This document shows, piece by piece, positions 1,439 to 20,597 of a stretch of 24,000 nt of DNA. The translations under genes and the position numbers were made by a program. The notes under the pieces were generated by a model. That model was given only the letters and a program-made list of their open reading frames with translations. It searched no databases and had not been told where the DNA came from. Source of the stretch: an uncultured archaeon (GTDB taxonomy: Archaea; Asgardarchaeota; Heimdallarchaeia; Heimdallarchaeales; Heimdallarchaeaceae); the NCBI GenBank assembly GCA_964534625.1, contig CAZHRF010000036.1, positions 1 through 24,000 on the forward strand. The letters are read 5' to 3'. Every line of letters starts with the position of its first letter. Position 1 is the first letter of the stretch.

Positions 1439-1577
1439 GTGGAAAAGTATCTATCACTTTATTTAATTTTTTTTGGTATGAAAATATCAAAAAGTATAAA
1501 GACTTCTCGAACACAATAAAAGTCCAGTAGTGAACAAAAATAATAAAAAGAACAAGTCAAATTTGGTTTGAGTACTG

Positions 1578-3110
1578 ATGGAGAACGCTTTAATTTCTTT
1601 AACCGGAGAAAACTTAACCCTATCTACCTTAATTTCTATTACTAGAGAAAGTAAAAAAATTAAAATTGCTGATGAGGCTATAAAAAGGATTTGTGAATCA
1701 AGACAGATTATTGAAAACAAAGTCAAACAAAACGAAACTATTTATGGTGTTACAACGGGTTTTGGAAAACTAGCAAATACAGCAATTGAAAAATCTGATC
1801 TAAAGAAACTCCAAGCAAACATAATTAAATCGCATAGTATCGGTTTTGGCAGTTCAATACCCGATGAAATTGTATTAGGAGCGATGGTTATTGCAGTAAA
1901 CTCTTTTTGTAAAGGTAATAGTGGTATTAGATTAGAAACTGTAAACATTTTAGTAGAACTAATTAATAGAAGAATTATCCCCCAAGTTCCAGAAACAGGT
2001 TCATTAGGCGCGAGTGGAGACCTAGCTCCGCTAGCATATATTGCTTGTGTTTTTTTAGGCGAAGGGTACGTAAAATACAATGATACAATTTTTCCTAGTA
2101 CTGATCTTCCCTCTAAATTCAATATCACCCCTCTAGAATTAGAAGCTAAAGAAGGATTAGCACTAGTAAATGGAACACATGTCTTAACATCATATAGTGC
2201 ACATTCAACATTTGATGCTATGAATATCATAAAAAATTCAGCTATTGCAGTAGCACTATCACTAGAAGCATATAGTGGAAATTTAGCAGCTTTTTCAGAT
2301 TTTATCATGAGAATGCGACCCCATAAAGGTCAGATTATATTTGCAAAAACCATTAGAGAATTAACAAAAGGTAGTGAGATTCTATCAGGTAAAAGAAAGA
2401 GAGTACAAGATCCTTATTCATTCCGTTGTTCTCCACAAGTACATGGGGCTGTTTTAGAGACCATAACATATTCTAAAAATATAATCGAAATAGAAATGAA
2501 TTCTTCAACAGATAATCCATTAATTAATAAAAACAAATCTGAAGTACTATCAGGTGGTAATTTTCATGGAGAACCTGTAGGCTTAAGTATGGATTATTTA
2601 GCAATAGCCCTCACAGAACTAGGTACAATATCAGAACGAAGAGTCAATCAATTACTAAACACCGTTCTTTCTGACTTACCGCCATTTTTAACAGACAAAC
2701 CTGGTTTAAATTCAGGTTTAATGATACTTCAATACGCTGACGCTGCCATTTCTTCTGAAAACAAAGTTCTAGCTTCTCCCGCATCAATAGACAATACACC
2801 GGTCTCAGCAGATCAAGAGGACCATGTATCTATGGGTATGACAGCCTGTAAGAAGGCGTATAAAATTGTAAAGAATCTTGAACAAATGATAGGGATTGAG
2901 ATATATACAGCTTGTCAAGCCTTAACATTCATCGAAAATAACCCCTCGCCGATACTTAAAGACATCTACGATACCATAAGAGAGGTTGTTACTCCATTAC
3001 GACAAGATAGAAAGTATGATACCGAGGTTTATTGGATTATCGAAAAACTCAAAGAGAGAAGATTTACAACCATGGTAAAAGAAAAATTAAAATCCCTATT
3101 TAGTGAATAA
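1578..3110 (+). CDS. hutH: Histidine ammonia-lyase (MIO-dependent aromatic amino acid lyase family)
   Basis: 510-aa ORF. 'GSLGASGDLAPLA' contains the Ala-Ser-Gly triad that forms the MIO cofactor. 'YGVTTGFG', 'LVNGT', 'SANQEDHVSMG'-like 'SADQEDHVSMG' are all present. Confidence 0.93.
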   Translation: MENALISLTGENLTLSTLISITRESKKIKIADEAIKRICESRQIIENKVKQNETIYGVTTGFGKLANTAIEKSDLKKLQANIIKSHSIGFGSSIPDEIVLGAMVIAVNSFCKGNSGIRLETVNILVELINRRIIPQVPETGSLGASGDLAPLAYIACVFLGEGYVKYNDTIFPSTDLPSKFNITPLELEAKEGLALVNGTHVLTSYSAHSTFDAMNIIKNSAIAVALSLEAYSGNLAAFSDFIMRMRPHKGQIIFAKTIRELTKGSEILSGKRKRVQDPYSFRCSPQVHGAVLETITYSKNIIEIEMNSSTDNPLINKNKSEVLSGGNFHGEPVGLSMDYLAIALTELGTISERRVNQLLNTVLSDLPPFLTDKPGLNSGLMILQYADAAISSENKVLASPASIDNTPVSADQEDHVSMGMTACKKAYKIVKNLEQMIGIEIYTACQALTFIENNPSPILKDIYDTIREVVTPLRQDRKYDTEVYWIIEKLKERRFTTMVKEKLKSLFSE

Positions 3111-3112
3111 AA

Positions 3113-3970
3113 ATGAAATTCGCAGTATTAGGAGATATTCATGGGAATTTGAAGAATCTGAAAAAGATAAGAGACGAATTAAAACTAGTTGATGCTATAT
3201 TTGTTACTGGAGATATAGCTGGAACAATCTCACTTAAGCATATAATTAAATCAATTATTCATTCTAAGAAGATTTCACGTAATGCATATGCAGAACTAGT
3301 ATACACAAAGTACAGAGAGGAGTTTACCAACTATCAATTAAAAACAACAAAAAAAACCTTGGATTTTTTTATTGATATCCAAAAGCCAGTTTTTGTTACT
3401 CATGGAAATGTGGAACTACCTGAAGTAAGAGAAATGTTGAAAAATTATTCGGTAGATCATCCACTTTTCTATTATTTGGGAAACAAAATTATTGAGTATA
3501 ATGGTCTAATAATAGTTGGCTATGGATATTGTACACCCGCAACATACAGAGAACCTTTACAGACGCCAGGTGAAAAAACAATTACCGAAATAAAAGCTGA
3601 TCTAATTACATTATCAGAAGAGATACGAAAAACTAGGAAGGGAGGTGAAAAGAGACTCATAGGATTGTTTCACGAACCGCCTAAGGGTACTAATCTTGAC
3701 TATATTGAAAAAGAAGATCTACATGGAGGAAGTCAAATACACCTTGAACACATCTCACAGATCAAGTATGATTATGTTTTTGTTGGCCATATCCATGAAT
3801 CCCCAGGATTGATTAAAAAAAATTCAGCAGTATGGTTAAATCCCGGACCAATGGTCTCGGGTAACTGGGCAAAGATAGAATTAAATAGCAACACCATTGA
3901 ATTCTTTGAAATAAAAAGATTAATTTCTATCAAAAAGTGGATTTATACCTTACGAGAAATATTCAAATGA
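3113..3970 (+). CDS. Calcineurin-like metallophosphoesterase, specific function unknown
   Basis: 285-aa ORF with the ordered metallophosphoesterase motifs 'GDIHGN', 'VTGDIAG', 'THGNVE', 'FHEPP' and 'GHIHE'. It starts 2 nt after the hutH stop (taa aa atg), so it is probably co-transcribed. Confidence 0.8.
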   Translation: MKFAVLGDIHGNLKNLKKIRDELKLVDAIFVTGDIAGTISLKHIIKSIIHSKKISRNAYAELVYTKYREEFTNYQLKTTKKTLDFFIDIQKPVFVTHGNVELPEVREMLKNYSVDHPLFYYLGNKIIEYNGLIIVGYGYCTPATYREPLQTPGEKTITEIKADLITLSEEIRKTRKGGEKRLIGLFHEPPKGTNLDYIEKEDLHGGSQIHLEHISQIKYDYVFVGHIHESPGLIKKNSAVWLNPGPMVSGNWAKIELNSNTIEFFEIKRLISIKKWIYTLREIFK

Positions 3971-4007: not shown

Positions 4008-4394
4008 TTAGAGAACACGCTTCTTCTCGTCTCCTTTCCGTTTAATTGTAATAGATGAAGGAATGCCTTCTATTTTTCTTTCTAATTTTTTAATACCGAG
4101 ACGAGAGACTTGTCTTCCCTCTAAATAGCCGATTTTAATCAAATATAATACATTTAAGAATATGGTCTCAGCTGTTTCATTTTTATTTTCATTTTCATAG
4201 AGTTGTTTCCAGTATTCAAAGGCATCGGGTGCCAAAAAGTATTGCATTAATTGAAATTTATCATCTACCGTAACACTTCTAGGCGCTTGTTCAGCTTCTT
4301 TTAAGTCCTCCATTCGCTTCTTTCTTTTGTCTGCCATTTCCATTAATTTTTGAGCTTTTTTCTTTCTTATTGCTTCTAATTCATCAGATGTCAT
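4008..4394 (-). CDS. PDCD5/TFAR19-like double-stranded DNA-binding protein family (small basic helical protein)
   Basis: 128-aa ORF. It has an N-terminal charged helix ('ELEAIRKKKAQKLME'), then a region 'LMQYFLAPDAFEYW...', a helical core and a C-terminal 'ITIKRKG'. This matches the layout of archaeal and eukaryotic PDCD5-family proteins as I recall it. By-eye only. Confidence 0.55.
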   Translation of the reverse strand: MTSDELEAIRKKKAQKLMEMADKRKKRMEDLKEAEQAPRSVTVDDKFQLMQYFLAPDAFEYWKQLYENENKNETAETIFLNVLYLIKIGYLEGRQVSRLGIKKLERKIEGIPSSITIKRKGDEKKRVL

Positions 4395-4677: not shown

Positions 4678-4911
4678 GTGAAGATATCAATTGTAACTGC
4701 TATCGGTGGAGGACTAATAGAACTAGATGCTGATCCTCATTCAACTGTAGCTCAATTAAAACGCGAAGTAGCAAGAATCAAGAAAATTCCAGCTAACACG
4801 GTCATTTTAGTTTTTCAAGGACATCAATTAGACGACAGTCAAATCCTTAAAGAAGCAGGCATTATGGATGGAGACAAACTCTATATTATTGCTAGAACGA
4901 AGGGAGGATAA
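4678..4911 (+). CDS. Ubiquitin-like beta-grasp protein ending in a free Gly-Gly (eukaryote-type ubiquitin homologue)
   Basis: 77-aa ORF with a GTG start preceded by GGTGAT (about 4667-4672). It aligns collinearly by eye with 76-aa eukaryotic ubiquitin ('IP' at 37-38, 'LVFQGHQLDD' vs 'LIFAGKQLED', C-terminus 'ARTKGG' vs 'LRLRGG'). The stop codon follows GG directly. Confidence 0.85.
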   Translation: MKISIVTAIGGGLIELDADPHSTVAQLKREVARIKKIPANTVILVFQGHQLDDSQILKEAGIMDGDKLYIIARTKGG

Positions 4912-4951
4912 AGTATTTATTATTTCTCCTTAACTATTTTTAGAGTGAAAA

Positions 4952-5968
4952 ATGTCTGATGATAAATCTCATGATAAATATTCTAGACAAGAATTAATAC
5001 CAGGTTGGGATCAATCTGCTTTAATAAATGCAAATGTAATTATTGCTGGAGTTGGGGCAATAGGGAGTTATGTAGCTACCATACTGGCTTCTTCTGGTAT
5101 TGGAAAACTTATCCTCATTGATATGGATAAGATTGAACTATCCAATCTGAACAGACAACTTTTATTTCGAGAATCAGATCTTAAGAGTTTTAAAGCGGAA
5201 ATTGCAGCAAAAAGATTGAAAAATTTAAATCAAGATGTTGAAATAATTCATTATAATAAAAAAATGGAAAAAGTTCCTCTTAGAGTTTATGAAGAAGCTG
5301 ATGTGATAATTGGATGTCTAGACACATTCATTGGAAGGAGATGGATTAATTCAATGGCTGTTAGACTAAAAAAACCACTCATTTTAGGTGGTATGTTCTC
5401 CTTTTTAGGTGATGTTCAAGTTATTTTTCCTTATGACACCCCTTGTTTTGAATGCCAACCTTTGGTTCCAGATGAAGAATTAGCTCAAGCTTGTACTCCC
5501 TTTGGTGATGTGAGAAAAGATGAACGTGAAGAAGAGGAGGAAGAAGCCAAATTACCGGCAGTAGCTACCCTATCGTCCATTATTGGGGGATGGATGGCAC
5601 AAGAAACAATAAAAATACTTTTGGAAATTGGAAATCCAATCAATAATTATTTGTTTTATGATGGCTTAAATAATGCCTATACAATTGTCCCCCTAGCAAG
5701 AAACAAAAATTGTCCAGCGTGTGGTGAATTATACAATCTTGAACAAATAAAATTTATCACATCCAATAATGAAACTACAAGAGATTTACTAGTACGTTTA
5801 AGCTTGTCTTATGGTCTAGAAAAACCCGAGATTATGATAGATGGAATGATATTAGAACAAGAAAAAAAGATCTCGTCATATAATCTTTCTAATGAGAAAC
5901 TTGCCTTTGTATTAGATACTTCTTTAGCAAAACCAATCAAAGTAGTGTTAGAAATAGTAGACCAATGA
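4952..5968 (+). CDS. E1-like ubiquitin/UBL-activating enzyme (ThiF/MoeB/UBA adenylation domain) with extra C-terminal domain
   Basis: 338-aa ORF. Rossmann ATP-binding 'IAGVGAIGS', 'DMDKIELSNLNRQ', and zinc-site pairs 'CFEC' (C165/C168) and 'CPAC' (C254/C257). A lone Cys181 ('AQACTPFG') sits in the crossover-loop position. It lies immediately downstream of the ubiquitin gene. Confidence 0.85.
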   Translation: MSDDKSHDKYSRQELIPGWDQSALINANVIIAGVGAIGSYVATILASSGIGKLILIDMDKIELSNLNRQLLFRESDLKSFKAEIAAKRLKNLNQDVEIIHYNKKMEKVPLRVYEEADVIIGCLDTFIGRRWINSMAVRLKKPLILGGMFSFLGDVQVIFPYDTPCFECQPLVPDEELAQACTPFGDVRKDEREEEEEEAKLPAVATLSSIIGGWMAQETIKILLEIGNPINNYLFYDGLNNAYTIVPLARNKNCPACGELYNLEQIKFITSNNETTRDLLVRLSLSYGLEKPEIMIDGMILEQEKKISSYNLSNEKLAFVLDTSLAKPIKVVLEIVDQ

Positions 5969-6042
5969 CATATTAAAAAACATAATTAAATGCAATTATT
6001 TTTAAACAGCGATGGTACTATAATCATATAGAAGATAAATGG

Positions 6043-7470
6043 GTGATTACAATTTCTCATGATTACATTCTTGCTACTGAGATGCAACTAATTTATAATA
6101 ATGCGGGAGGATTTGAACCCGTACAAGGCAATTTAAAACGTTGGAAAGGTCAGGTAGGTACAATACAGGGTACATCTATTCCCATTTATGCTGAAATTAA
6201 AATTCAACCAAATTTTCCTCATAGCCCACCGGTTGTTAATATTCAACCCAAGTTAACACATCCTAATGTTAATGAATATGATGTTCTTAAGATGAGGGTG
6301 CTATCTAATTGGAATCCTAGAACACACATATACGAGGTTATTAATGAGATTAAGGCTTTATTTTCTACAGTACCCGCTAAACCTCTAAAATTCAAGCTAA
6401 AAGATAGTCCGTATAAAGAACCATCAAAATTACCTAGAACAGAACAGTCTAAGGATATTCCGCAAAAATTTAAATCTAGAAGCCAAGAGGTACTATTTGA
6501 ACAAGAAGTCAAAACTGATCCGCAAGTGACGAGAATCAGAAAAAAAATCCAAGCATACCAAACAAGGATAGAACAAATAAATAAAGAAATTGAAAGAGAG
6601 AGAGCAACTTTACTTGAAAATGCAGGTGTGCAAGTGAACAAAGATCAAGAGATAGAAGCATCACTCAATGATTTATATCAAGCAGACGTGAATGCCACTA
6701 GCGATCTCATCGAGATCTTAGGGGAAAAATTTGAAGATGGTGACCTTTCTGATGTTGATTATCTTAAATTGCATAGAAAGTATACTGCAAGAGTCTTCAA
6801 AACAAAAAAACAACTACAATTTATGGAAAATGCTGGTGATAAAATGGATAATAGAGATGAAAGAAGATTAGATCTAGAAGCAGACCTTTTTGCAGCAATT
6901 GTAACTTTAGAAAAGATAACTAAAGGATACCAACAACACGAGATTGAACAAATTGCTTATAAAAAACAACTTAGAGCACTAATCAAAAACATATTCAAAT
7001 CGAGAATGAGACTAGAACAAATAGGCGGCTTCAAACTAGACGAGTTTATTGAAAGAGAACAAATGGATCAGAAATATTCATTAGGAGTTAGACAGTTACG
7101 CGTAGCAGAAGGAGTTGAAACACCAGATTCTATTTCCAATGTAGCTTTACCATTTGATTCCTTGAAAAGAATGCCAAGACAAACAGCAGACTTTGTTTCA
7201 TCAGCAATTGAATTAATAGACTTAACGAGATTAAAATCCGTTGCTAGGGCAGATTTAATATTAGCAGATCTAGATGAGTTGATACATATTACAGAGACGT
7301 TTCCAAGTATTCCGGATGACTTCTGGATAATCGATGACATGAAGGATTGGAGAAAAATAGTTTCAAATTATGATACACAAGAAGTATTGAAGGGAGAGGA
7401 TTGTGAGAAACTAGAATTTCAAACCTCTAGATGGCTAAATGAATTCAGAAGATTACTTAAGGATCTTTAA
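6043..7470 (+). CDS. ESCRT-I fusion protein: Cys-less UEV (Tsg101/Vps23-like E2 variant) + coiled-coil stalk + steadiness-box-like segment + complete Vps28
   Basis: 475-aa ORF with a GTG start.
- N-terminus: E2 fold signature 'PNFPHSPPVVNIQPKLTHPNV', but Lys83 sits where the catalytic Cys would be, and there is no Cys in the first 450 aa.
- aa 205-262: 'LGEKFEDGDLSDVDYLKLHRKYTARVFKTKKQL' resembles the TSG101 C-terminal steadiness box.
- aa 275-475: aligns with Vps28 along its whole length, e.g. 'ADFVSSAIELIDLTRLKSVARADLILADLDELIHITETFPSIPDDF' and the C-terminal 'WLNEFRRLL'. Confidence 0.8.
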   Translation: MITISHDYILATEMQLIYNNAGGFEPVQGNLKRWKGQVGTIQGTSIPIYAEIKIQPNFPHSPPVVNIQPKLTHPNVNEYDVLKMRVLSNWNPRTHIYEVINEIKALFSTVPAKPLKFKLKDSPYKEPSKLPRTEQSKDIPQKFKSRSQEVLFEQEVKTDPQVTRIRKKIQAYQTRIEQINKEIERERATLLENAGVQVNKDQEIEASLNDLYQADVNATSDLIEILGEKFEDGDLSDVDYLKLHRKYTARVFKTKKQLQFMENAGDKMDNRDERRLDLEADLFAAIVTLEKITKGYQQHEIEQIAYKKQLRALIKNIFKSRMRLEQIGGFKLDEFIEREQMDQKYSLGVRQLRVAEGVETPDSISNVALPFDSLKRMPRQTADFVSSAIELIDLTRLKSVARADLILADLDELIHITETFPSIPDDFWIIDDMKDWRKIVSNYDTQEVLKGEDCEKLEFQTSRWLNEFRRLLKDL

Positions 7471-7478
7471 TAGATGTT

Positions 7479-7519
7479 TGGTGATATACATAAATGGTTA
7501 TCACCACCACATATTTTTT
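7479..7519 (+). promoter_or_regulatory. 8-bp hairpin (tggtgata N12 tatcacca) followed by T6; sequesters a GGTGAT Shine-Dalgarno-like motif
   Basis: Read directly: 7479-7486 is the reverse complement of 7499-7506, and a T6 run lies at 7514-7519. It is located 9 nt after the stop of the ESCRT-I fusion gene. It could be an attenuator/terminator or a translational control element. No experimental support. Confidence 0.35.
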
Positions 7520-7538
7520 AATGAAAAATCACCACTAA

Positions 7539-7859
7539 TTGGGAGAATGTATTATGGCACACAATGTTTCATCAGAAGCAATCTATCAAGAGATAAGAGA
7601 AGCTATCCTTGAATTGATCAATCTGATTGAAATTGATATTGATGTATCATACGTATTAGAAGAATTGGAAGAAATAAGATTCAAAATCAGAAAGATTAAT
7701 GTAAAAAACGGATCCGTACCAGAAGAAATAAATCAGGTGTTTAATAAGCTATATGACAAATACAAAAATAAAATGTCAGCTCCACTCTCATCAAGAGATA
7801 AAAGAAAACTTATCGAAAATCTAAAAGAATGGCTAATAAAAGCGGGTTCAATGTTCTAA
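7539..7859 (+). CDS. Small all-helical hypothetical protein located between the ESCRT-I and ESCRT-II genes
   Basis: The ORF is 106 aa from TTG 7539. A more likely start is ATG 7554 ('MAHNVSS...'), preceded by tgggag. Heptad-like helical sequence with no recognisable motif. Its conserved-looking operon position is the only functional hint. Confidence 0.55.
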   Translation: MGECIMAHNVSSEAIYQEIREAILELINLIEIDIDVSYVLEELEEIRFKIRKINVKNGSVPEEINQVFNKLYDKYKNKMSAPLSSRDKRKLIENLKEWLIKAGSMF

Positions 7860-7874
7860 TAAAGGCAGCTCGTT

Positions 7875-7892
7875 TAAAAACAATTGTTTTTA
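7875..7892. promoter_or_regulatory. Perfect 18-bp palindrome TAAAAACAATTGTTTTTA abutting a tataat element upstream of the EAP30 gene
   Basis: Read directly. It lies 16 nt after the stop of the 106-aa ORF and about 70 nt before the EAP30 start. It could be a hairpin terminator (stem plus T5) or an operator overlapping an internal promoter. The AT-rich background raises the chance expectation. Confidence 0.4.
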
Positions 7893-7959
7893 TAATGCTT
7901 TTGACAATGTACTTACAGATAAAAAGTGCATAAATCTAAAATATAATGGGGTCATAACA

Positions 7960-8682
7960 TTGGGATTAAGAGAAATAGAAAAAAAATTAAAAATCAAATC
8001 AGCTTTTCAGGTGAAAGAAGCAGAATTAATGATTAAAGAATTAGAGCAAATGATAGAAAACACTAAAGAAACGAAAAAACAACTGCAAAAATTTGAAAAG
8101 AAATATAGCGATAAAATAAAACAGAACAAAGATTATTATGAAAAATTAGAGGGGCTCAGAGAAGAGTTAGGATTACCAAAAGAGATTGGGAGATACGATT
8201 GGAGAGACGCTCCATCTATGAAAGACAAATTAACTGGTGGCGGATACTATGATAGATTGGCTAATGAAATTATTGATTTGGGTAAAGAGTTAACGAAACA
8301 AAATGGAGGGATTATGGCGATAAGTGAACTGTTCACACAAGTTAATAAAGCAAGACCAGGAAACGTAGTTTCAATTGATGACCTGTATAAAGGGTTAGAG
8401 AAGTTAATAAATGCCTCGTTAATCGCACCTTTCAAAATATTGGAATCAGGAGTAAAAATTGTTGAATTCACACCGGTTGAATTCTCTCAAGATCATAGTC
8501 TTGTTTTAAGTTATGCATCCAAAACGGGATATATAACAAGAGAAGAATTACTTATGCAAACAAATTGGACAGAGGAAAGAATTAATCGTTGCCTTGTTTT
8601 CTTTGAAGAAAATAATATAGCGATTAAAGACGACGATTATGAAGAAGGAACAAAGTATTGGTTCCCGGGACTGGGACAATAA
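7960..8682 (+). CDS. vps22: ESCRT-II EAP30-domain protein (Vps22/Vps36-like, tandem winged helix) with N-terminal coiled coil
   Basis: 240-aa ORF with a TTG start. 'NGGIMAISELFTQVNKARPGNVVSIDDLYKGLEKL...KIVEFTPVEFSQDHSLVLSYASKTGYITREELLMQTNWTEERINRCLVFFEENNIAIKDD...YWFPGL' is collinear with SNF8/Vps22 ('GGLITLEEL...', 'MDHTVVLQLAEKNGYVT...WETERARQVLEHLLKEGLAWLD...YWLPAL') as recalled. Confidence 0.85.
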   Translation: MGLREIEKKLKIKSAFQVKEAELMIKELEQMIENTKETKKQLQKFEKKYSDKIKQNKDYYEKLEGLREELGLPKEIGRYDWRDAPSMKDKLTGGGYYDRLANEIIDLGKELTKQNGGIMAISELFTQVNKARPGNVVSIDDLYKGLEKLINASLIAPFKILESGVKIVEFTPVEFSQDHSLVLSYASKTGYITREELLMQTNWTEERINRCLVFFEENNIAIKDDDYEEGTKYWFPGLGQ

Positions 8683-8720
8683 CTTTCTTATCGTTTTTTT
8701 CGCATAGAAAAATAAAAAGA
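8683..8720. terminator. Bidirectional oligo-T termination region between the convergent ESCRT operons
   Basis: The 38-bp spacer contains T7 (8694-8700) on the plus strand. On the minus strand it contains ctttttatttttc (reverse complement of 8707-8719). Oligo-T tracts are the usual archaeal termination signal. Confidence 0.4.
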
Positions 8721-9518
8721 TTAGAAGACTTTTTCATCATCAAAACGCATGATAGTCTTTTCCCTATTCAACCAGTGAGCTACCCCTTTATTCACTAAAA
8801 TATCGACAACATCAATCAAATCCTCAGGAGGTAAAGTTGCCCATTCTTCATCAAATTGTGATAAATCAAAAAGTGAGTGGACTTCCACTACTCGACCAGT
8901 TTCCAACATGAAATTAAGCAAATCTTCAGCAAATTCAGCGTTTGTTTTCCACTTGATTCGGGCTCTAAGTTTAGTTGTTTCTTCCTTTTTTAGCCCAAAA
9001 ATCTTAGCTAACCACGCAAAAAACCCTCGTTTTTGTTCTTCATCCAACCAGGTTGCGTAGTCTTTCTCACCTAAGTAACCAACTAAGTTCCTCAGCTGTT
9101 CAATGGATAACTCTTTTCCTATTTCTTCATTCTTAAATGGGTAAACAGTACGTATTTTATTGATACTAATAATATGAATCACATATAATTTAGTATAATC
9201 AAGAAGAACCTTTGACCATTTATCAGACCATGAACCTATTTTATCTGTACTTTTGGGGGAAATATACATCCACGGTTTGTTCACCCATTTAGGTAACATG
9301 TCCTCGAACTCTTTTTCTAATTTAACTTGTTGATCCTTCTTAGTTAAAAGTCCAGTTTGAGACCTATCTATAGCTTTAGTAGTTTGTAATTCTTCTTCCG
9401 ATATTTCAATTCCTTTCAAACTGGCCTCAATTAATTTAAGTTTCTCCTCTGAAATCTTTTTTTCTTTCTTCAATTCTTCAAGATTCACATCTATTGATTC
9501 TTTTTCTAACGTTGCCAT
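8721..9518 (-). CDS. vps25: ESCRT-II Vps25-like protein (tandem winged helix) with ~80-aa N-terminal coiled-coil extension
   Basis: 265-aa ORF. aa 80-265 are collinear with Vps25 as recalled ('PWMYISP...SWSDKWSKVLLDY' vs 'WQYRFPPFFTLQPN...QLAAWCSLVLSF'; second WH 'LFDLSQFDEEWATLPPEDLIDVVDILVNKGVA'). A GAGGT motif lies 7 nt before the ATG. The gene starts 16 bp after the Vps4 stop. Confidence 0.75.
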   Translation of the reverse strand: MATLEKESIDVNLEELKKEKKISEEKLKLIEASLKGIEISEEELQTTKAIDRSQTGLLTKKDQQVKLEKEFEDMLPKWVNKPWMYISPKSTDKIGSWSDKWSKVLLDYTKLYVIHIISINKIRTVYPFKNEEIGKELSIEQLRNLVGYLGEKDYATWLDEEQKRGFFAWLAKIFGLKKEETTKLRARIKWKTNAEFAEDLLNFMLETGRVVEVHSLFDLSQFDEEWATLPPEDLIDVVDILVNKGVAHWLNREKTIMRFDDEKVF

Positions 9519-9534
9519 CCAATTACCTCATATA

Positions 9535-10683
9535 TTATGCTGAACCAAATTCGGCAGCCCAATCTAGATATTTATTAACTTCTCGCTCATTAACGGAAGG
9601 ATTAATATCCTGTATTGCTCCAATAAAATCACTCATGTTTACATCACGGGCTTGTACAGTTTCATCACCTAATGCACCAATACTGTCCAAATCACGGATT
9701 GGTTTCATAATAGCCTCTCTACATATCATAGCTATATCGGCACCAGAGTAGCCTTCAGTAATCTCTGCGAGCTTACCATAATCAACATCAGATTCCATGT
9801 TAACTTCACGGGTATTATACTTGAAAATACCTTCTCTAGCCTCCAGATCAGGTAAACCAATATAAATACGTCTTTCAAATCGTCTTCTAAATGCAGCATC
9901 AATACCTTCGGGAAAGTTAGTGGCGCCAAGAACAACTATACGGTCTTCGTCTTTACTACTTAAACCATCCATTGAAGTTAATAATTCGTTTTTTACACGT
10001 CGTAAAGCATCATGTTCGCTACCCCTAGAACCCGTCATAGCATCAACTTCATCAACAAATACAATGGAAGGTTGTCTTTCTCTTGCTATCTCGAAAAGCG
10101 TTTTTACTAACTTTTCTGATTCACCCAACCATTTTGACATCAAGGAAGATGCTGAAACATTGAAAAATGAGGCTTCTATCTCAGAGGCTGTTGCACGGGC
10201 TAGTAAAGTTTTACCACAACCAGGCGGACCAAATAATAGAATCCCTTTCCAAGGTCTGCGTGCTCCCCTAAACAAATCGGGTCGCATCAATGGAAGTACT
10301 ATGGCTTCACGTAAGGTTTGTTTTGCAACACTTAAGCCAGCAATGTCATTCATTTTAACATTTGGTTTTTCTGTTACAATAAGGTCATCAATTGCACTTG
10401 CTAATTTATCGTTATCAGAATCCGTTGCTCGTGCTTTGTTCCTTGAACGCTCTTTGATTTTTTCTCTCAATTCTTTTGCACGATCAACGTACATTTCAGC
10501 TTTTTTACGAAGCTGCTTTGCTACCTGGATATTACGTTCAAAACGGATAGCTTGTGTTAAGGCTTCAGCTGCTTCTAGATAATAAGCTACAGCCTCACTA
10601 TATTGTTGATCTTTATCTAAATTGTATGCTTTTTTAGCTTTCTTTGTTGCTTGCTCTATTATACCTCTAGCAGACACGTACAC
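9535..10683 (-). CDS. vps4: Vps4-type AAA+ ATPase (N-terminal MIT domain + single AAA cassette)
   Basis: 382-aa ORF. MIT-like three-helix N-terminus ('YSEAVAYYLEAAEAL...KAEMYVDRAKELREK'). 'RPWKGILLFGPPGCGKT' (Walker A), 'SIVFVDEVD' (Walker B), 'SKWLGESEKLVKTLF', 'RRRFERRIYIGLP', and a C-terminal helix 'YLDWAAEFG'. The start may be the second GTG (10677), which has GAGGTG 5 nt upstream. Confidence 0.93.
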   Translation of the reverse strand: MYVSARGIIEQATKKAKKAYNLDKDQQYSEAVAYYLEAAEALTQAIRFERNIQVAKQLRKKAEMYVDRAKELREKIKERSRNKARATDSDNDKLASAIDDLIVTEKPNVKMNDIAGLSVAKQTLREAIVLPLMRPDLFRGARRPWKGILLFGPPGCGKTLLARATASEIEASFFNVSASSLMSKWLGESEKLVKTLFEIARERQPSIVFVDEVDAMTGSRGSEHDALRRVKNELLTSMDGLSSKDEDRIVVLGATNFPEGIDAAFRRRFERRIYIGLPDLEAREGIFKYNTREVNMESDVDYGKLAEITEGYSGADIAMICREAIMKPIRDLDSIGALGDETVQARDVNMSDFIGAIQDINPSVNEREVNKYLDWAAEFGSA

Positions 10684-10740
10684 ACCTCATCTTTATCTTG
10701 AAAGTTACAAGGGATGATTATAGTTGAAACGATATTAACA

Positions 10741-10754
10741 AGACGATTTCGTCT
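10741..10754. promoter_or_regulatory. Palindrome AGACGA-TT-TCGTCT about 60 bp upstream of the Vps4 start
   Basis: Read directly. It sits in the 219-bp gap that separates Vps4 from the upstream ESCRT-III genes, just upstream (in minus-strand sense) of an aactataatc TATA-like element. Candidate transcription-factor site only. Confidence 0.3.
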
Positions 10755-10902
10755 ATTGTATTAAATAGTTTCCCAATAAAGGTTAAACGTTCTTATTAAT
10801 AAAGTATAGCATATTATCTAACGTAAGGAGTAAACAACCTAACAACATATGTCAGAATAAGAGAAAATAAAAAGAAAAAGAGAGTTATATGTTTAATAGT
10901 AA

Positions 10903-11568
10903 CTAATCATCCGATATTTCTTCTTTCAAAGCTTCTAATTCCGCCTCTAGATCCGATGTATCTTCAACTTGAGAACTTCTTGATTTACCTGTTGAAACAG
11001 AGGGTAATTCATCATCTATATCTATAGATGGAAGATCCCCAGTTGTTTCCATATCCAACTCTGCTTGAAGTTGATCTAATTCATCGTCAATAGATATATC
11101 AAAATCATCTTCGAAAGCACCCTCTGAGAAACTCGTATCACCTAAGATCTCTTGGGACATAGATAATCTATCTTGTTGCATAGCTGCTTTATCCATAACT
11201 TCTGCAACACGTTTTTCATCAATTTTTCCCATTTGTTGCTCTACAACGTTTGTCCCCGTCTCCATCGCCTTAACCGTTTCTGAGGTTGATTTAGCAGTAT
11301 CTATGCTCTCCATTTGTGTTTGGAGATTCATTATCATATTTTGAGCTTGATTGATTTTTTTTAGATAAATTCTTCTTCTTTGCATTGCAGAGCGTGCGCC
11401 ATTTTTATTTCCACTTTTAAGCATCTTTGCAGCGAGTACTTTTTGCTCATCAGAAAGTCGCTCATAATTACGAATATTACGTTCAAGCTTATTTATTTGA
11501 GCTTTTAACACGGAAAGGGCTTGAGCGTCATCTCGCCTTTTGTCACCAAATAACCATTTTTTGACCAT
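10903..11568 (-). CDS. ESCRT-III protein, Snf7/CHMP4 (Vps20/32/60) class
   Basis: 221-aa ORF. Snf7-family core ('AAKMLKSGNKNGARSAMQRRRIYLKKINQ', 'VKAMETGTNVVEQQMGKIDEKRVAEVMDKAAMQQD') is collinear with CHMP4/Snf7 as recalled. Acidic C-terminal tail. A GGTGAT motif lies 6 nt before the ATG. The gene starts 14 bp after the upstream paralogue. Confidence 0.85.
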   Translation of the reverse strand: MVKKWLFGDKRRDDAQALSVLKAQINKLERNIRNYERLSDEQKVLAAKMLKSGNKNGARSAMQRRRIYLKKINQAQNMIMNLQTQMESIDTAKSTSETVKAMETGTNVVEQQMGKIDEKRVAEVMDKAAMQQDRLSMSQEILGDTSFSEGAFEDDFDISIDDELDQLQAELDMETTGDLPSIDIDDELPSVSTGKSRSSQVEDTSDLEAELEALKEEISDD

Positions 11569-11582
11569 AATATATCACCATC

Positions 11583-12194
11583 TTACTCTTCTTTATCACG
11601 AAGTTTTTGTATTTCAGCTTCTAAATCATCAACTTCTGCACCTACTGTGGGTAATGTGGTACCTGTTGTTATACCCATCTCAACTGCAGTTTGTTCAATT
11701 AACCTATCGACTTCTGACTCATCAGTATCACTCACAAGCATATCATCAATACCATCCTCTATTGTTTCCGTACTTGTTTCTATATTGTCGATAGACATTT
11801 CCATGTCTTGAATAACGCGATCCAAATCAGGTATTTGCAGTTGTGCATTAGCCATTCTTAGGGCGTCAGCAACACCGTGCATTTCTTCAGCCATTGAAGC
11901 GGCTGAATCAGCACGCTCTAACTTGAATATGAGACCATTAATTCTAGAAACCAATTTTTGATATCCTAGTGACCACTTGCGGCTGCGAACGATATCTGTA
12001 CTATATAACCTTGCGGCTTCCATATCACCTCGTTCAATAGCTTTACGCATTTTTTGTTCCATCTTTCTTTCATCAGAATCGATTTTACGTTGTGCGCGTT
12101 CAAGTCGTCGGATAGTAAGCTTAAGATTCACAATATGTTCTCTAGGTGAACTACTACCTGACCCAAATAACCAGCCAAAGAATGAACTAAACAT
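11583..12194 (-). CDS. ESCRT-III protein, CHMP1/Did2 (Vps2/24/46) class
   Basis: 203-aa ORF. 'RKAIERGDMEAARLYSTDIVRSRKW' vs CHMP1B 'KKAIQKGNMEVARIHAENAIRQKNQ'. C-terminal 'DDLEAEIQKLRDKEE' vs CHMP1B 'DELSQRLARLRDQV' (MIM1). The N-terminal 'MFSSFFGWLFG' resembles yeast Snf7 'MWSSLFGW'. Confidence 0.85.
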   Translation of the reverse strand: MFSSFFGWLFGSGSSSPREHIVNLKLTIRRLERAQRKIDSDERKMEQKMRKAIERGDMEAARLYSTDIVRSRKWSLGYQKLVSRINGLIFKLERADSAASMAEEMHGVADALRMANAQLQIPDLDRVIQDMEMSIDNIETSTETIEDGIDDMLVSDTDESEVDRLIEQTAVEMGITTGTTLPTVGAEVDDLEAEIQKLRDKEE

Positions 12195-12514: not shown

Positions 12515-12883
12515 ATGACAGAAGACAAACCAATTATTCATCCACCATTATCTATGAAGACAAAGAGCTTGAAAGAATTAGCAAAAGTTATCCTATCTGG
12601 AGCCAATCCGCAGAGAGGAGCAGGATATCTAAATTATATCGTGCTTGAGAATAAAACTATATATTTCACAATGCATATGGGAATGGGGTACTATAATCTT
12701 CGTTCTTTGCCAATAATTCTTTGGACTGAGGAAGAAAAACCTCCAACAGGTGGATTTTTGAGATATAGAACATCACCAAAAGAAGAATTGGTGTTTGCCA
12801 CAGATGGTTCTGATCCAAAGTGGGCAACTCTACCCTTAGTAGAATATGAAGAAATTCCAGAAGAATTCAAAGTGTTCGAGTAA
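12515..12883 (+). CDS. Hypothetical protein (122 aa), no recognisable family
   Basis: ORF with a GAGGT motif 8 nt before the ATG. Non-repetitive composition and an acidic C-terminus. Divergently transcribed from the ESCRT-III operon. I recognise no motif. Confidence 0.5.
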   Translation: MTEDKPIIHPPLSMKTKSLKELAKVILSGANPQRGAGYLNYIVLENKTIYFTMHMGMGYYNLRSLPIILWTEEEKPPTGGFLRYRTSPKEELVFATDGSDPKWATLPLVEYEEIPEEFKVFE

Positions 12884-13103: not shown

Positions 13104-14411
13104 TTAATCTCTTATAGCCTTTTTTCCATCACGTAAAAATTGTGTGAAATTAATTCTTGAAGGACATACATAAGAACACAATCCACATTCAATACAGACC
13201 TCAACATGGAGTTTTCTTAACATATTTACATCATCTTTTTTTGCTGCATCCATTATCAGTTGAGGATAGATATCTACTGGACATACGATATTACAATATG
13301 AACAACGTATACATGGCAAGGAATTCTCATAGGGGTCATGTTCTTCTGCTTGAAAAGCTGTTACTGCAGAAGTAGCTTTTAGAACAGGATATGAGGCATC
13401 ATCTATAGTTGGTCCCATCATAATTGAACCTAAAACTATTCTATTAAATTTTGTCGGAGATAATTTTAGATAATCAAGGATATGATTAACGGGTGTTCCC
13501 ATGCGTACCCACAAATTCTTCCCTTTTGTCTCTTTAGAATAGAAGGTAATACCCCGTGAGACTAGTGTTTCACCATTATATACTGCATCCCAAACTGCAT
13601 AAGCTGTTGCAATGTTATGTACGATTATTCCAATATCAGGCGCATATTGACCTGCTGGAACTTCAATGCCTAAAATTTCTTTTATTAAGAGTTTTTCACT
13701 TCCAACAGAATAATTGGGACGAATACGTTCAATAAGTATATCGTTGTCTCTCAAAAGTGCTTCAAACTCTGGTGTTGTACCTTCCTTTGTTCGTGTAGCA
13801 AAAATAATTTGATCCACGTCAAGCATTTTACCCATCAGTTTTATACCTTTTATTAGTTCCTTAGATTTTTCAACCATCAAACGGAAGTCACAAGCAATAT
13901 TTGGATCGCTTTCTTTGGCATTTATAATCAAGCAAGAAATAGCTTTTGATCCAAGTTTTACATGACTAGGGAATGAAGCACCACCAAGCCCAACTATTCC
14001 CGCTTCCTTAACGCGCTCAATTAATTGCGCTCTTGTTGCATTTTTGGGATCTAGAGGGTCTAAAGCACGCTTTTTTTCTTCATTTTCTGTTTTTATCACT
14101 ATTGCAATTTCATCATTTCCAGAAATAGGATTTTTTATTTCTTTTTTTTCGACTATTTTACCATTAACAGGACTATGAACTGGAGTACAAAGTGCATTTT
14201 CATCATCAATATCACCAATTTTTTGACCATACTTTACACGATCTCCAACTTTTACTAATGGTTCAGCTTTTTTTCCGATATGCTGACTTAAGAACACAAT
14301 CATGTGTTCAGCAGGAGGTACTTCCGTAAATGGGTCATCGACGGCCGTTTTTTTCATATCGATGTTCATCTCAAAACGACCTTTTTCCTTGAAATGTTGC
14401 ATACTAAGCAC
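13104..14411 (-). CDS. rnfC: RnfC-like electron-transfer subunit (RnfC_N barrel-sandwich + NADH/FMN-binding 51K-like + SLBB + 2x[4Fe-4S])
   Basis: 435-aa ORF. 'GIVGLGGASFPSHVKL' (GxGGAxFP), and two ferredoxin motifs 'CIRCSYCNIVCP' and 'CIECGLCSYVCP'. The most probable start is ATG 14402 ('MQHFKEK'), because AAGGAGGTG lies 6 nt upstream of it. Confidence 0.8.
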   Translation of the reverse strand: MLSMQHFKEKGRFEMNIDMKKTAVDDPFTEVPPAEHMIVFLSQHIGKKAEPLVKVGDRVKYGQKIGDIDDENALCTPVHSPVNGKIVEKKEIKNPISGNDEIAIVIKTENEEKKRALDPLDPKNATRAQLIERVKEAGIVGLGGASFPSHVKLGSKAISCLIINAKESDPNIACDFRLMVEKSKELIKGIKLMGKMLDVDQIIFATRTKEGTTPEFEALLRDNDILIERIRPNYSVGSEKLLIKEILGIEVPAGQYAPDIGIIVHNIATAYAVWDAVYNGETLVSRGITFYSKETKGKNLWVRMGTPVNHILDYLKLSPTKFNRIVLGSIMMGPTIDDASYPVLKATSAVTAFQAEEHDPYENSLPCIRCSYCNIVCPVDIYPQLIMDAAKKDDVNMLRKLHVEVCIECGLCSYVCPSRINFTQFLRDGKKAIRD

Positions 14412-15545: not shown

Positions 15546-15974
15546 TTAAGAAGAAAAACTCAATGCATAACCACATTTAGAGCAAAATTCATCTTTTTTG
15601 CTTTTCTTTACGCCACAGCTAGGACAAAACGCAATTTTTTTAATCTTGGATAATTCTTCTCCGCACTTTGAGCAAAACTCTTCTTCTTTTTTAAGTTTAT
15701 TTCCACAACTCGCACAATATTTAATACTTTTTACCACTTGTTGCTTTCTTTGTGGTTTTCTACTCTTTAACAATCGAATCTGTATCAAAACCATCACCAA
15801 CAAAATAAAACCAACTGATGCTATGACAACAAATACTATATCACCAGGTTGAACCAATAGCTTTTTATTATCTATTAGATTTGAAATCAGTCCATAGCTA
15901 CCATAAATGAGTCCAGCTATACCAAACAACAATTCTGTTACAATCCACGTTATTTTATCAATTTGAGATGGCAC
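15546..15974 (-). CDS. Membrane-anchored double zinc-ribbon protein
   Basis: 142-aa ORF with a GTG start. Two N-terminal hydrophobic helices and a basic linker. Then an internally duplicated unit 'C(A/P)SCG..KK..(E/D)EFCSKCG' (four CxxC pairs). Confidence 0.6.
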   Translation of the reverse strand: MPSQIDKITWIVTELLFGIAGLIYGSYGLISNLIDNKKLLVQPGDIVFVVIASVGFILLVMVLIQIRLLKSRKPQRKQQVVKSIKYCASCGNKLKKEEEFCSKCGEELSKIKKIAFCPSCGVKKSKKDEFCSKCGYALSFSS

Positions 15975-19107: not shown

Positions 19108-19113
19108 GAGATT

Positions 19114-20574: not shown

Positions 20575-20597
20575 AGTTCATTCTTTGTGTAATATGT
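20548..20597. repeat. Perfect 25-bp tandem direct duplication (aaagttcattctttgtgtaatatgt x2) at the convergent glgA / GH13 gene ends
   Basis: Read directly: 20548-20572 is identical to 20573-20597. The glgA stop codon TAA (20572-20574) spans the copy junction. The GH13 stop (reverse complement of 20578-20580) lies in copy 2. Confidence 0.9.

Follow-up and report, generated by a model that had tools for sequence, protein, structure and literature searches.

The stretch of archaeal DNA analysed here (24,000 nt, hereafter the window) raises the question of whether a prokaryotic gene cluster encodes ubiquitin together with ESCRT-I, -II and -III components and Vps4, from which lineage it comes and what it would do. 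An initial annotation had proposed nine genes. An ORF check recovered all nine at the same positions and on the same strands, and a Pfam scan supports the proposed identity of each except the 101-aa ORF:

4678–4911, plus strand: ubiquitin, 77 aa (Pfam ubiquitin, 4.7e-13)
4952–5968, plus strand: E1-like ubiquitin-activating enzyme, 338 aa (Pfam ThiF, 1.4e-60)
6043–7470, plus strand: ESCRT-I fusion, 475 aa (Pfam VPS28, 5.7e-12, aa 280-472; UQ_con, 2.3e-10, aa 50-116)
7554–7859, plus strand: Vps28 C-terminal-domain-like four-helix bundle, 101 aa (AF2, Foldseek, hhalign and gene context)
7960–8682, plus strand: Vps22-like protein (EAP30), 240 aa, TTG start (Pfam EAP30, 3e-22)
8721–9518, minus strand: Vps25, 265 aa (Pfam ESCRT-II, 2.8e-13, aa 99-224)
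9535–10683, minus strand: Vps4 AAA+ ATPase, 382 aa (Pfam MIT, 1e-10; AAA, 1.3e-41; AAA_lid_3, 2.3e-14; Vps4_C, 3.2e-08)
10903–11568, minus strand: ESCRT-IIIB (Vps20/32/60-like), 221 aa (Pfam Snf7, 7e-21)
11583–12194, minus strand: ESCRT-IIIA (Vps2/24/46-like), 203 aa (Pfam Snf7, 1e-21)

The plus strand carries a recognition module (ubiquitin, E1, ESCRT-I, the Vps28 C-terminal-domain protein and Vps22), on which an execution module on the minus strand converges (ESCRT-IIIA and ESCRT-IIIB, Vps4, Vps25). From ubiquitin to Vps22, the successive plus-strand spacers measure 40, 74, 83 and 100 bp; 38 bp separate the convergent Vps22 and Vps25 genes, and the minus-strand spacers from Vps25 to ESCRT-IIIA measure 16, 219 and 14 bp. 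Hence, the 14-40 bp spacers of the initial annotation hold for some of the gaps but not for those of 74, 83, 100 and 219 bp. Similarly, the two convergent operons that it described are borne out as to the strands, but the minus-strand genes are probably transcribed as two units, separated by the 219-bp gap 3' of ESCRT-IIIB, which contains oligo-T runs. Inspection of the sequence also bears out its translation and termination signals: most starts are preceded, at a distance of 5-10 nt, by Shine-Dalgarno-like motifs of the GGTGA/GAGGT type, and the ubiquitin, Vps22, Vps25 and ESCRT-IIIB genes are followed by oligo-T tracts.

The core domains all belong to “eukaryotic signature” families, as would be expected if the locus derived from eukaryotic contamination or from a chimeric assembly of unrelated fragments. 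However, the genes are intron-less, tightly packed and equipped with the signals just described, composition is even over the 24 kb, and the flanks (RnfC/RnfD, GH57, glycogen synthase) are prokaryotic. In addition, positions 5037-8807 are reproduced at 100% identity by three contigs from two independent runs in Logan assemblies, which rules out chimerism for the plus-strand block and the convergent junction. The gene order also recurs in contigs of the type of Heimdallarchaeota AB_125 and on the closed chromosomes of two Heimdallarchaeum species. Contamination, already denied in the initial annotation, or chimerism is thus extremely improbable, and chance is dismissed because orthologous genes recur in identical order in other genomes.

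Snf7 and Vps4 homologues are widespread in archaea, and the UEV (0.0043) and Vps23_core (0.028) matches of the ESCRT-I fusion fall under the Pfam cut-offs. The locus could therefore be a mere Cdv-type (CdvB/CdvC) division module with a spurious resemblance to ESCRT-I and ESCRT-II. Against this, VPS28 (46.2 bits, cut-off 24.5), EAP30 (79.9 bits, cut-off 26.8) and ESCRT-II/Vps25 (50.7 bits, cut-off 27) all exceed the curated Pfam cut-offs, so that the hits are not of the generic CdvB/CdvC kind only. Moreover, ubiquitin and E1 adjoin, no CdvA match occurs among the ORFs scanned, and the two Snf7 proteins divide into A and B types like those of eukaryotes. We give a simple Cdv module almost no weight; the locus is, as first proposed, an Asgard ubiquitin and ESCRT-I/II/III–Vps4 cluster in prokaryotic format.

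The C-terminus of ubiquitin (...TKGG) abuts the stop codon, which makes C-terminal processing unnecessary. The protein is 77% identical to the ubiquitin of the AB_125-type locus and contains the ILVFQG hydrophobic-patch region; in AB_125, the V45 patch of ubiquitin is required for binding the UEV domain (Hatano et al. 2022, PMC9192718). The E1 combines a ThiF/MoeB adenylation domain with a C-terminal extension of ~80 aa and has two CxxC pairs (C165/C168 and C254/C257), with Cys181 as a candidate catalytic cysteine. Its NCBIfam matches (MoeB/ThiF/UbaA/Ube1) are all sub-threshold. The AB_125-type orthologue, 61% identical, is annotated in AB_125 as “E1, Uba1/Uba5 like” (cog.000308; PMC10936438).

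In the ESCRT-I fusion, a UEV domain is followed by a disordered linker, a coiled-coil stalk with a helical hairpin (steadiness-box region) and a full Vps28 with its N-terminal and C-terminal domains. Vps23_core is recorded for many orthologues that are 50-55% identical to the fusion. In the AF2 model (pLDDT 76.8), the N-terminal domain resembles UbcH5-type E2s and the UEV-like domain of VPS37A (~1e-4). The sole cysteine of the protein is at position 454, leaving the UEV domain cysteine-free; the E2 fold without a cysteine agrees with the UEV assignment made initially. Hatano et al. 2022 characterised HeimAB125_14070, with which the fusion shares 51% identity.

The 101-aa ORF had been described as an orphan helical ORF. 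It most likely starts at ATG 7554, as in public assemblies, rather than at TTG 7539. Its AF2 model (pLDDT 87.6) has four helices, and the top Foldseek matches are Vps28 C-terminal-domain structures, 2j9w_A/B (TM 0.73, rmsd 2.2 Å) and 2g3k, with a weak E-value for the assignment (0.05) and in a fold class, four-helix bundles, that is common. Comparison of its family with that of the fusion by hhalign gave a single match, on the Vps28 C-terminal domain of the fusion, with a score of 29.6 (200 column shuffles: mean 14.4, maximum 23.1); Pfam VPS28 matches no member of the 101-aa family. In Heimdall and Baldr loci alike, the gene has Vps28 on one side and Vps22 on the other. Hence, structural modelling and profile comparison point to a free paralogue of the Vps28 C-terminal domain instead of an orphan, in line with the annotation already published for the AB_125 counterpart (“Vps28 protein, C-terminal region”, cog.004115; Makarova et al. 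2024, PMC10936438).

The Vps22-like protein is 68-71% identical to Heimdall orthologues, of which that of AB_125 (HeimAB125_14050) homodimerises (PMC9192718). Vps25 carries an N-terminal helical extension of ~95 aa that is typical of Asgard Vps25, whose N-terminal subdomains have been noted (PMC10936438); it matches PDB entries 9uyv (“ESCRT-II complex subunit”) and 7pb9 (“Tandem WH domains of Vps25”). Vps4, 67% identical to Heimdall orthologues, retains Walker A (GPPGCGKT), Walker B (IVFVDE), the pore loop (KWLGE) and an RRFERR arginine motif. A PDB search separates the two Snf7 proteins into the two ESCRT-III classes initially proposed. ESCRT-IIIB, with an acidic C-terminal tail (...DLEAELEALKEEISDD), matches AB_125 ESCRT-IIIB (9ftl, 2e-60) and then yeast Snf7. 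ESCRT-IIIA, 74% identical to Heimdall orthologues, ends in a MIM1-like C-terminus (...DDLEAEIQKLRDKEE) and best matches CHMP1B (2e-19), CHMP1A, CHMP2A and Vps24/CHMP3.

Beyond the nine genes, three neighbours deserve attention:

4008–4394, minus strand: PDCD5/TFAR19-family protein, 128 aa (NCBIfam NF003268 “DNA-binding protein”, 5e-4, full length, below cut-off)
12515–12883, plus strand: uncharacterised protein, 122 aa, divergent from ESCRT-IIIA, in a conserved position
16087–17496, minus strand: candidate accessory protein, 469 aa, similar to an AB_125-type neighbour and beyond the range of the initial annotation

The PDCD5-like protein shares 37% identity (1e-13) with a Baldrarchaeia neighbour matching PF01984 (dsDNA_bind), and its gene adjoins ubiquitin and E1 in AB_125-type and Heimdallarchaeum loci, rearrangement notwithstanding (arCOG04179 in AB_125; PMC10936438). 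The 122-aa protein is without a match in Pfam, NCBIfam or the PDB; orthologues 43-47% identical occupy the same place in Heimdallarchaeum and AB_125-type loci (L001, L002 and L006), where the AB_125 gene is annotated arCOG04275, “Uncharacterized protein” (PMC10936438). Judged by position in the loci aligned, both genes are conserved neighbours of the cluster. The 469-aa protein comprises N-terminal CxxC zinc ribbons, a coiled coil, a beta-rich middle and a C-terminal helical region. It has only a weak DZR_2 match in Pfam; along its whole length, it shares 37.5% identity with the 435-aa product of the gene directly 3' of the cluster in AB_125-type loci.

The closest counterpart is the AB_125 cluster, HeimAB125_14010-14100 (Hatano et al. 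2022, PMC9192718; Souza et al. 2025, PMC11804906; Makarova et al. 2024, PMC10936438 Table S). In AB_125-type loci (L006–L008), the nine genes keep their order and orientation: ubiquitin, E1, the UEV-Vps23-Vps28 fusion, the Vps28 C-terminal-domain protein and Vps22 converge on Vps25, Vps4, ESCRT-IIIB and ESCRT-IIIA. The PDCD5-like, 122-aa and triple-Zn-ribbon/putative PH neighbours are also common to both. In contrast, amino-acid identity is only 37-77%, which indicates a different genus-level lineage. Moreover, the PDCD5-like gene is oriented the other way, and the window has no AtpK gene 3' of ESCRT-IIIA but an insertion of RnfC, RnfD and a TM/Zn-ribbon gene ahead of the gene for the triple-Zn-ribbon protein. 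Ca. Heimdallarchaeum aukensis and endolithica (CP084166, CP084167; closed chromosomes) share 11 of 11 genes, the nine and the PDCD5-like and 122-aa genes, at 43-74% identity. There, however, a single inversion places the E1-ubiquitin-PDCD5 block between Vps22 and Vps25 and a Ras/Rab-like GTPase gene lies just upstream of ESCRT-I; in H. aukensis, a TnpB-like insertion separates Vps25 and Vps4.

The initial annotation had called the contig Loki-like from its AT-richness. GC is indeed low (0.33), and ubiquitin-ESCRT genes occur in Lokiarchaeia too (PMC9192718), but the Heimdall loci compared have the same GC. The only two matches in the genome collection are the two Heimdallarchaeum species, and named homologues of the fusion are all from Heimdallarchaeota or Heimdallarchaeaceae except one Bathyarchaeota-labelled record. 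ESCRT-IIIB matches AB_125 far better than another archaeal Vps20/32/60-like PDB chain (8e-11), and flanking non-ESCRT genes are syntenic with AB_125. Finally, it is in Heimdallarchaeota that a fused Vps23-Vps28 has been described, whereas Loki genomes have separate genes and two discrete ubiquitin and ESCRT regions (PMC9192718). A Lokiarchaeial origin is very unlikely; relatives and gene order designate Heimdall.

Unfused Asgard clusters (Heimdallarchaeota MAG GCA_011364945.1 and Baldrarchaeia MAGs) share the order Vps23-like, Vps28, Vps28 C-terminal-domain-like (~100 aa), Vps22, and in Baldrarchaeia a PDCD5 (PF01984) gene adjoins the ESCRT-I/II cluster. Their Vps23 and Vps28 are separate genes, to both of which the fusion aligns colinearly (L009 and L011), and no ubiquitin or E1 was called within the stretches retrieved. 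With yeast and human ESCRT, the window shares predicted UEV-ubiquitin recognition and predicted Vps28 to ESCRT-II and Vps25 to Vps20-type ESCRT-III connections, as well as A- and B-type ESCRT-III and an MIT-AAA Vps4. Unlike them, it has operons, a single Vps22-like protein, two ESCRT-III paralogues only, and a fused Vps23-Vps28 beside the free C-terminal domain; no homologues of ESCRT-0, Vps37, Mvb12 or Vps36/GLUE were found in the window. The system had also been called complete, but ORF domain scans of the 24,000 nt found no catalytic E2, RING E3 or JAB/MPN deubiquitinase, so cargo ubiquitylation is not inferable from the locus alone. In AB_125, these three lie in a separate locus (Makarova et al. 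2024, PMC10936438).

The mechanism that we infer for the locus has steps demonstrated in orthologues with 51-77% identity or in eukaryotic homologues. The ThiF-type E1 would adenylate ubiquitin, mature as encoded, at its C-terminal GG, and an E2 and E3 encoded elsewhere in the genome would attach it to membrane-associated substrates. The cysteine-less UEV would bind the hydrophobic patch of ubiquitin, as in AB_125 where binding depends on V45, and the Vps28 part would contact the Vps22 homodimer, probably helped or regulated by the separate C-terminal-domain protein. Vps25, carried by Vps22, would nucleate ESCRT-IIIB on the membrane; ESCRT-IIIB would recruit ESCRT-IIIA, which would tubulate and constrict the membrane. 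The MIT domain of Vps4 would then bind the ESCRT-III tails and the polymer would be disassembled using ATP. Vps25-ESCRT-IIIB, ESCRT-III-Vps4 and ESCRT-I-Vps22 interactions are known in AB_125 (PMC9192718), where ESCRT-IIIB arrays recruit ESCRT-IIIA and ESCRT-IIIA tubulates membranes (Souza et al. 2025, PMC11804906). The order of the genes matches that of these steps.

The same proteins could instead act mainly in cytokinesis or the repair of membranes, and not in the sorting of cargo directed by ubiquitin or the budding of vesicles. Ubiquitin and E1 would then lie beside the ESCRT genes for regulatory reasons, such as turnover of ESCRT-III by the proteasome, as in the division of Sulfolobus. 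In favour of this, division of TACK archaea is driven by ESCRT-III/Vps4 (PMC9192718), and the cluster lacks E2 and E3. On the other hand, the fusion of a dedicated ubiquitin-binding UEV to Vps28, with ESCRT-II next in line, speaks for a recruitment step that depends on ubiquitin and precedes ESCRT-III, and ubiquitin-UEV binding has been demonstrated for the orthologue (PMC9192718). We consider this alternative role unlikely, though by far the most serious of those weighed here.

Overall, we are confident in the joint reading of a Heimdallarchaeaceae-type ubiquitin-ESCRT cluster, gene-for-gene orthologous to that of AB_125 and acting by the proposed mechanism. As initially stated, this class of system had been published for Asgard archaea; so had the exact arrangement, which was also studied biochemically in AB_125. 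By sequence comparison, the present locus is a further, fairly divergent example (~50-75% amino-acid identity), which in the cell could act in division, membrane repair, the budding of vesicles or the release of viruses.

The coordinates and strands of the nine ORFs that the initial annotation placed in a ubiquitin–ESCRT cluster are exact, and each identity that it proposed is backed by Pfam.

Genes of the cluster (coordinates, strand, identity and supporting matches)
4678-4911, plus: ubiquitin (Pfam ubiquitin 4.7e-13, 49.1 bits against a cut-off of 25.4)
4952-5968, plus: E1 (Pfam ThiF 1.4e-60, 204.9 bits)
6043-7470, plus: ESCRT-I fusion UEV-Vps23-Vps28 (VPS28 5.7e-12, aa 280-472; UQ_con 2.3e-10, aa 50-116)
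7554-7859, plus: ORF assigned below to Vps28_C
7960-8682, plus: Vps22-like EAP30 protein, ESCRT-II (Pfam EAP30 3e-22, 79.9 bits)
8721-9518, minus: Vps25, ESCRT-II (Pfam ESCRT-II 2.8e-13, 50.7 bits; Vps25 matches in the PDB)
9535-10683, minus: Vps4 (Pfam MIT, AAA, AAA_lid_3 and Vps4_C)
10903-11568, minus: ESCRT-IIIB, B-type, Vps20/32/60 (Snf7 about 1e-21; PDB match of 2e-60 to ESCRT-IIIB of Candidatus Heimdallarchaeota archaeon AB_125, 9ftl, then yeast Snf7)
11583-12194, minus: ESCRT-IIIA, A-type, Vps2/24/46 (Snf7 about 1e-21; best PDB matches CHMP1B, CHMP2A and Vps24)

The ubiquitin sequence ends in a di-glycine (...TKGG) directly ahead of the stop codon. Its gene directly adjoins that of the ThiF-type E1, in which the sequence reveals two putatively zinc-binding CxxC pairs (165/168 and 254/257) and a candidate catalytic cysteine, Cys181. 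In Vps4, the Walker A, Walker B, pore-loop and arginine motifs are all intact. The two ESCRT-III classes recognized initially are also real, as PDB sequence searches separate one B-type from one A-type protein. Among the Pfam families proposed as a check, ubiquitin, ThiF, VPS28, EAP30, Vps25, Snf7 and MIT/AAA/Vps4_C are all matched; UEV and Vps23_core stay below threshold.

These two sub-threshold families (0.0043 and 0.028, respectively) concern the ESCRT-I protein, which shows the Heimdall-specific fusion of a Vps28 domain to the C-terminus of the UEV-Vps23 part. Its VPS28 match (46.2 bits) covers the whole profile (positions 2-188 of 188) and UQ_con reaches 40.7 bits, against a cut-off of 27. 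Cys454 is the sole cysteine of the protein; residues 1-453, including the whole N-terminal E2-fold domain, are devoid of it. A Foldseek search with the AF2 model of this domain returns E2 enzymes and the UEV-like domain of VPS37A. Having an E2 fold and no cysteine, the domain is therefore a UEV by definition. In the steadiness-box region, Vps23_core scores 14.8 bits, under the cut-off of 26.8, AF2 predicts long helices at 208-231 and 238-264, and PF09454 is on record for many orthologues at 50-55% identity. Overall, the fusion aligns colinearly with the separate Vps23 and Vps28 genes of other Asgard genomes.

The genes form two convergent blocks, as initially described. Genes of the plus-strand block are separated by 40, 74, 83 and 100 bp and those of the minus-strand block by 16, 219 and 14 bp, with 38 bp between the two blocks where they converge, so that the announced range of 14-40 bp applies to half of them and is exceeded by the spacers of 74, 83, 100 and 219 bp. 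Direct reading of the intergenic regions bears out the Shine-Dalgarno-like motifs (GGTGA/GAGGT-like, 5-10 nt ahead of most starts) and the oligo-T tracts, seen behind ubiquitin, Vps22, Vps25 and ESCRT-IIIB. Since the 219-bp gap after ESCRT-IIIB carries such a tract, the sequence suggests two transcription units on the minus strand, IIIA-IIIB and Vps4-Vps25; three units are predicted in all. A sigma-70 promoter and terminator scan of the window, using a bacterial model ill-suited to archaea, gave background levels, and neither tRNA nor Rfam families were found in the window.

The initial annotation had called the contig Loki-like, given its AT-richness. GC content is 0.33 in the window and equally so in all Heimdall loci compared, so that AT-richness is no pointer to Loki. 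When one genome was scanned for each prokaryotic species, relatives of the fusion turned up in two closed chromosomes only, those of Ca. Heimdallarchaeum aukensis and Ca. Heimdallarchaeum endolithica (51-53% identity). A larger protein search gave 48 homologues, the named ones all labelled Heimdallarchaeota or Heimdallarchaeaceae bar one; HeimAB125_14070, the AB_125 fusion, is among them (51% identity), and only one Logan protein is closer (93%). In addition, the order and orientation of the nine genes are those of the AB_125-type loci, which also have non-ESCRT flanking genes in common with the window, and protein identity to AB_125 ranges from 37 to 77%. With the Heimdall match of ESCRT-IIIB in the PDB, the homologue labels, gene order and GC content lead us to reject a Lokiarchaeial origin. 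The window represents a separate lineage within or adjoining Heimdallarchaeaceae. Two Heimdall-type UEV/ESCRT-I proteins (P0035 and P0068) carry the labels "Candidatus Bathyarchaeota archaeon" and "candidate division Zixibacteria bacterium", probably as a result of Asgard contigs having been mis-binned in public MAGs.

Eukaryotic contamination, already dismissed in the initial annotation, and chimeric assembly are both excluded for practical purposes. Three short, mutually overlapping contigs, assembled independently in Logan from two sequencing runs, are 100% identical to positions 5037-8807, base composition is even over the window, and the synteny recurs in closed genomes. Reads of the source genome are available under SRR7048222 and SRR7048225, and NCBI holds its proteins on contigs of up to 32.8 kb.

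The cluster had also been described as complete. This is true of the Asgard ESCRT core plus ubiquitin and E1, but not of the ubiquitin cascade. A Pfam scan of 21 non-overlapping ORFs of the window (ubiquitin and every such ORF of 90 aa or more) found no catalytic E2, RING E3 or JAB/MPN deubiquitinase. The window thus differs from Ca. Odinarchaeum and Caldiarchaeum, where E1, E2, E3 and deubiquitinase form a cascade within one cluster; in AB_125, the catalytic E2, RING E3 and JAB/MPN genes sit in a separate locus, on contig n_00050 (Makarova et al. 2024 table, PMC10936438). Pfam likewise gave no match within the window to ESCRT-0, Vps37, Mvb12 or Vps36/GLUE, a lack that is usual for Asgard archaea (Hatano et al. 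2022, PMC9192718). Hence, "complete" has to be limited to the Asgard core with ubiquitin and E1, and the initial interpretation is right on the system but wrong on lineage and completeness.

The ORF between the fusion and Vps22 (ATG at 7554, 101 aa in the public gene call) had been left as an orphan helical ORF. HMMER, run exhaustively over 1.84 billion representatives, yielded only 11 relatives, against two with a word-indexed search; they are about 100 aa long except for one of 568 aa and one of 72 aa. Pfam VPS28 matches neither the ORF nor its 13 relatives, and a PDB sequence-profile search with the family gave noise only. The AF2 model is a confident four-helix bundle (pLDDT 87.6), for which Foldseek ranks two chains of the Vps28 C-terminal domain first and second (2j9w, TM 0.73, rmsd 2.2 Å) and another such domain ninth (2g3k), with weak E-values (0.05-0.8) of the kind that small helical bundles would give. 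When the family profile was aligned by hhalign to the 479-column profile of the fusion family, a single match was obtained, at columns 391-475, which correspond to the Vps28 C-terminal domain. Its score of 29.6 compares with a mean of 14.4 (sd 2.5, maximum 23.1) for 200 column-shuffled controls. Distant family members, in a Heimdallarchaeota MAG and in Baldrarchaeia, likewise lie between Vps28 and Vps22, although Vps23 and Vps28 are unfused there. We considered whether the ORF could be a missing third ESCRT-I subunit, analogous to Vps37, to Mvb12 or to a free steadiness box. This candidate was rejected, since the profile alignment fell on the C-terminal domain of Vps28 rather than on the stalk/steadiness-box region and the fold search gave the same answer. 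From its fold, its profile match to the C-terminal domain of the fusion and its conserved position between Vps28 and Vps22, the ORF is a free-standing Vps28_C paralogue, and no orphan. This identity is not new. Some Asgard genomes encode the Vps28 C-terminal domain separately besides a full vps28, and the AB_125 counterpart is annotated "Vps28 protein, C-terminal region" (cog.004115; Makarova et al. 2024 and its table, PMC10936438). For the free Vps28_C, the ESCRT-I/II interface is the probable site of action.

Conserved neighbours are the sole place where functional novelty might remain. A PDCD5/TFAR19-family protein (4008-4394, minus strand, 128 aa) keeps its place beside Ub-E1 in the loci of AB_125 type and of Heimdallarchaeum, even though in the latter, unlike in the window, the E1-Ub-PDCD5 block is inverted and relocated between Vps22 and Vps25. 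In Baldrarchaeia, too, the ESCRT cluster has a PF01984 homologue right beside it. A sub-threshold NCBIfam match and the published arCOG underlie the assignment, together with homology to a neighbour that is positive for PF01984; the profile found no relative in the PDB. The main text of two ESCRT papers does not mention the linkage. On the other side, a 122-aa protein (12515-12883, plus strand) always lies downstream of ESCRT-IIIA, directly or one gene further, in the Heimdall loci compared, with orthologues at 43-47% identity in three other loci. Searches of Pfam, NCBIfam, the PDB and homologues retrieved nothing beyond this protein itself, and the AB_125 gene at its position is listed as arCOG04275, "Uncharacterized protein" (Makarova et al. 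2024 table, PMC10936438). A 142-aa protein (15546-15974, minus strand) carries hydrophobic segments near its N-terminus and a double zinc ribbon at the other end; homologues (about 41% identity) directly follow the 122-aa orthologue in both Heimdallarchaeum loci. Finally, a 469-aa protein (16087-17496, minus strand) combines CxxC zinc ribbons at its N-terminus with a coiled coil and a beta-rich central part. Since it gave only a weak Zn-ribbon match in Pfam and none in the PDB, its putative PH domain is a label borrowed from the published annotation of its orthologue. This triple-Zn-ribbon/PH protein is displaced in the window by an RnfC/RnfD/Zn-ribbon insertion.

RnfC-like and RnfD-like genes (13104-15441, minus strand), with no further Rnf subunits called nearby, form an insertion relative to AB_125 that separates the ESCRT neighbourhood from the Zn-ribbon proteins. 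Ras/Rab/Arf-like GTPase genes lie just upstream of ESCRT-I in Heimdallarchaeum (9307-9849 in L001, the H. aukensis locus) and a few kb upstream in an AB_125-type locus (4441-4977 in L006), whereas the window has none. The H. aukensis cluster contains a TnpB/Cas12f-like TNB zinc-finger fragment between Vps25 and Vps4 (L001, 15418-16871); as this insertion is missing from H. endolithica, a mobile element has landed inside the H. aukensis cluster. At the edges of the window, positions 164-3970 encode an amidohydrolase, an aromatic amino-acid/histidine ammonia-lyase (2e-178) and a metallophosphoesterase. The AB_125 cluster also has an upstream amidohydrolase, SsnA-like and weakly similar to that of the window (29% over 126 aa). 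Positions 17968-23955 encode a GH57 protein, a glycogen/starch synthase (Glyco_transf_5 + GT1) and a 1125-aa protein with an alpha-amylase catalytic domain, and look like a glycogen/starch metabolism block.

The AB_125 system provides a frame for function. There, the UEV-Vps23-Vps28 fusion binds ubiquitin via the ubiquitin hydrophobic patch, Vps22 forms a homodimer, and yeast two-hybrid assays paired ESCRT-I with Vps22, Vps25 with ESCRT-IIIB, ESCRT-IIIA with ESCRT-IIIB and ESCRT-III with Vps4; the Ub-UEV, ESCRT-I-Vps22, Vps25-ESCRT-IIIB and ESCRT-III-Vps4 interactions were shown for AB_125, Odin and Loki orthologues only (Hatano et al. 2022, PMC9192718). Membrane arrays of ESCRT-IIIB recruit ESCRT-IIIA, which tubulates membranes (Souza et al. 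2025, PMC11804906). Given that the window has orthologues of all AB_125 relay proteins with the relevant motifs, orthology would make an AB_125-style relay the best-supported model here. A ubiquitin-tagged substrate would be bound by the UEV/Vps28 fusion, which would engage Vps22/Vps25; from these the relay would pass to ESCRT-IIIB, then to ESCRT-IIIA and lastly to Vps4. The process served may be vesicle budding, division or repair.

In yeast, ESCRT-I and ESCRT-II are linked by the Vps28 C-terminal domain, which binds a zinc finger inserted in the PH/GLUE domain of Vps36. A rather speculative and, in our estimate, unlikely extension is that Vps28_C, the triple-Zn-ribbon/PH protein, the 122-aa protein and the PDCD5-like protein are parts of the pathway, with Vps28_C and the Zn-ribbon-PH protein in particular rebuilding this link in trans. 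If true, the latter would give Asgard ESCRT-II the "Vps36 function" that it otherwise lacks, with binding to membrane and to ubiquitin.

The initial annotation was correct that this class of system has been published for Asgard archaea, and the exact arrangement is the published AB_125 one; the cluster keeps it, and the picture of the system is unchanged. Central evidence that membrane remodelling directed by ubiquitin is older than eukaryotes comes from the Asgard Ub-ESCRT cluster. To this, the window adds a divergent Heimdallarchaeaceae lineage, at about 50-75% identity to the biochemically characterised AB_125 proteins and with gene order kept, which can be used for conservation and covariation analysis and for picking better-behaved orthologues for biochemistry. 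It also shows which neighbours are linked across genera, namely Vps28_C, the PDCD5-like protein, the 122-aa protein and the triple-Zn-ribbon/PH protein.
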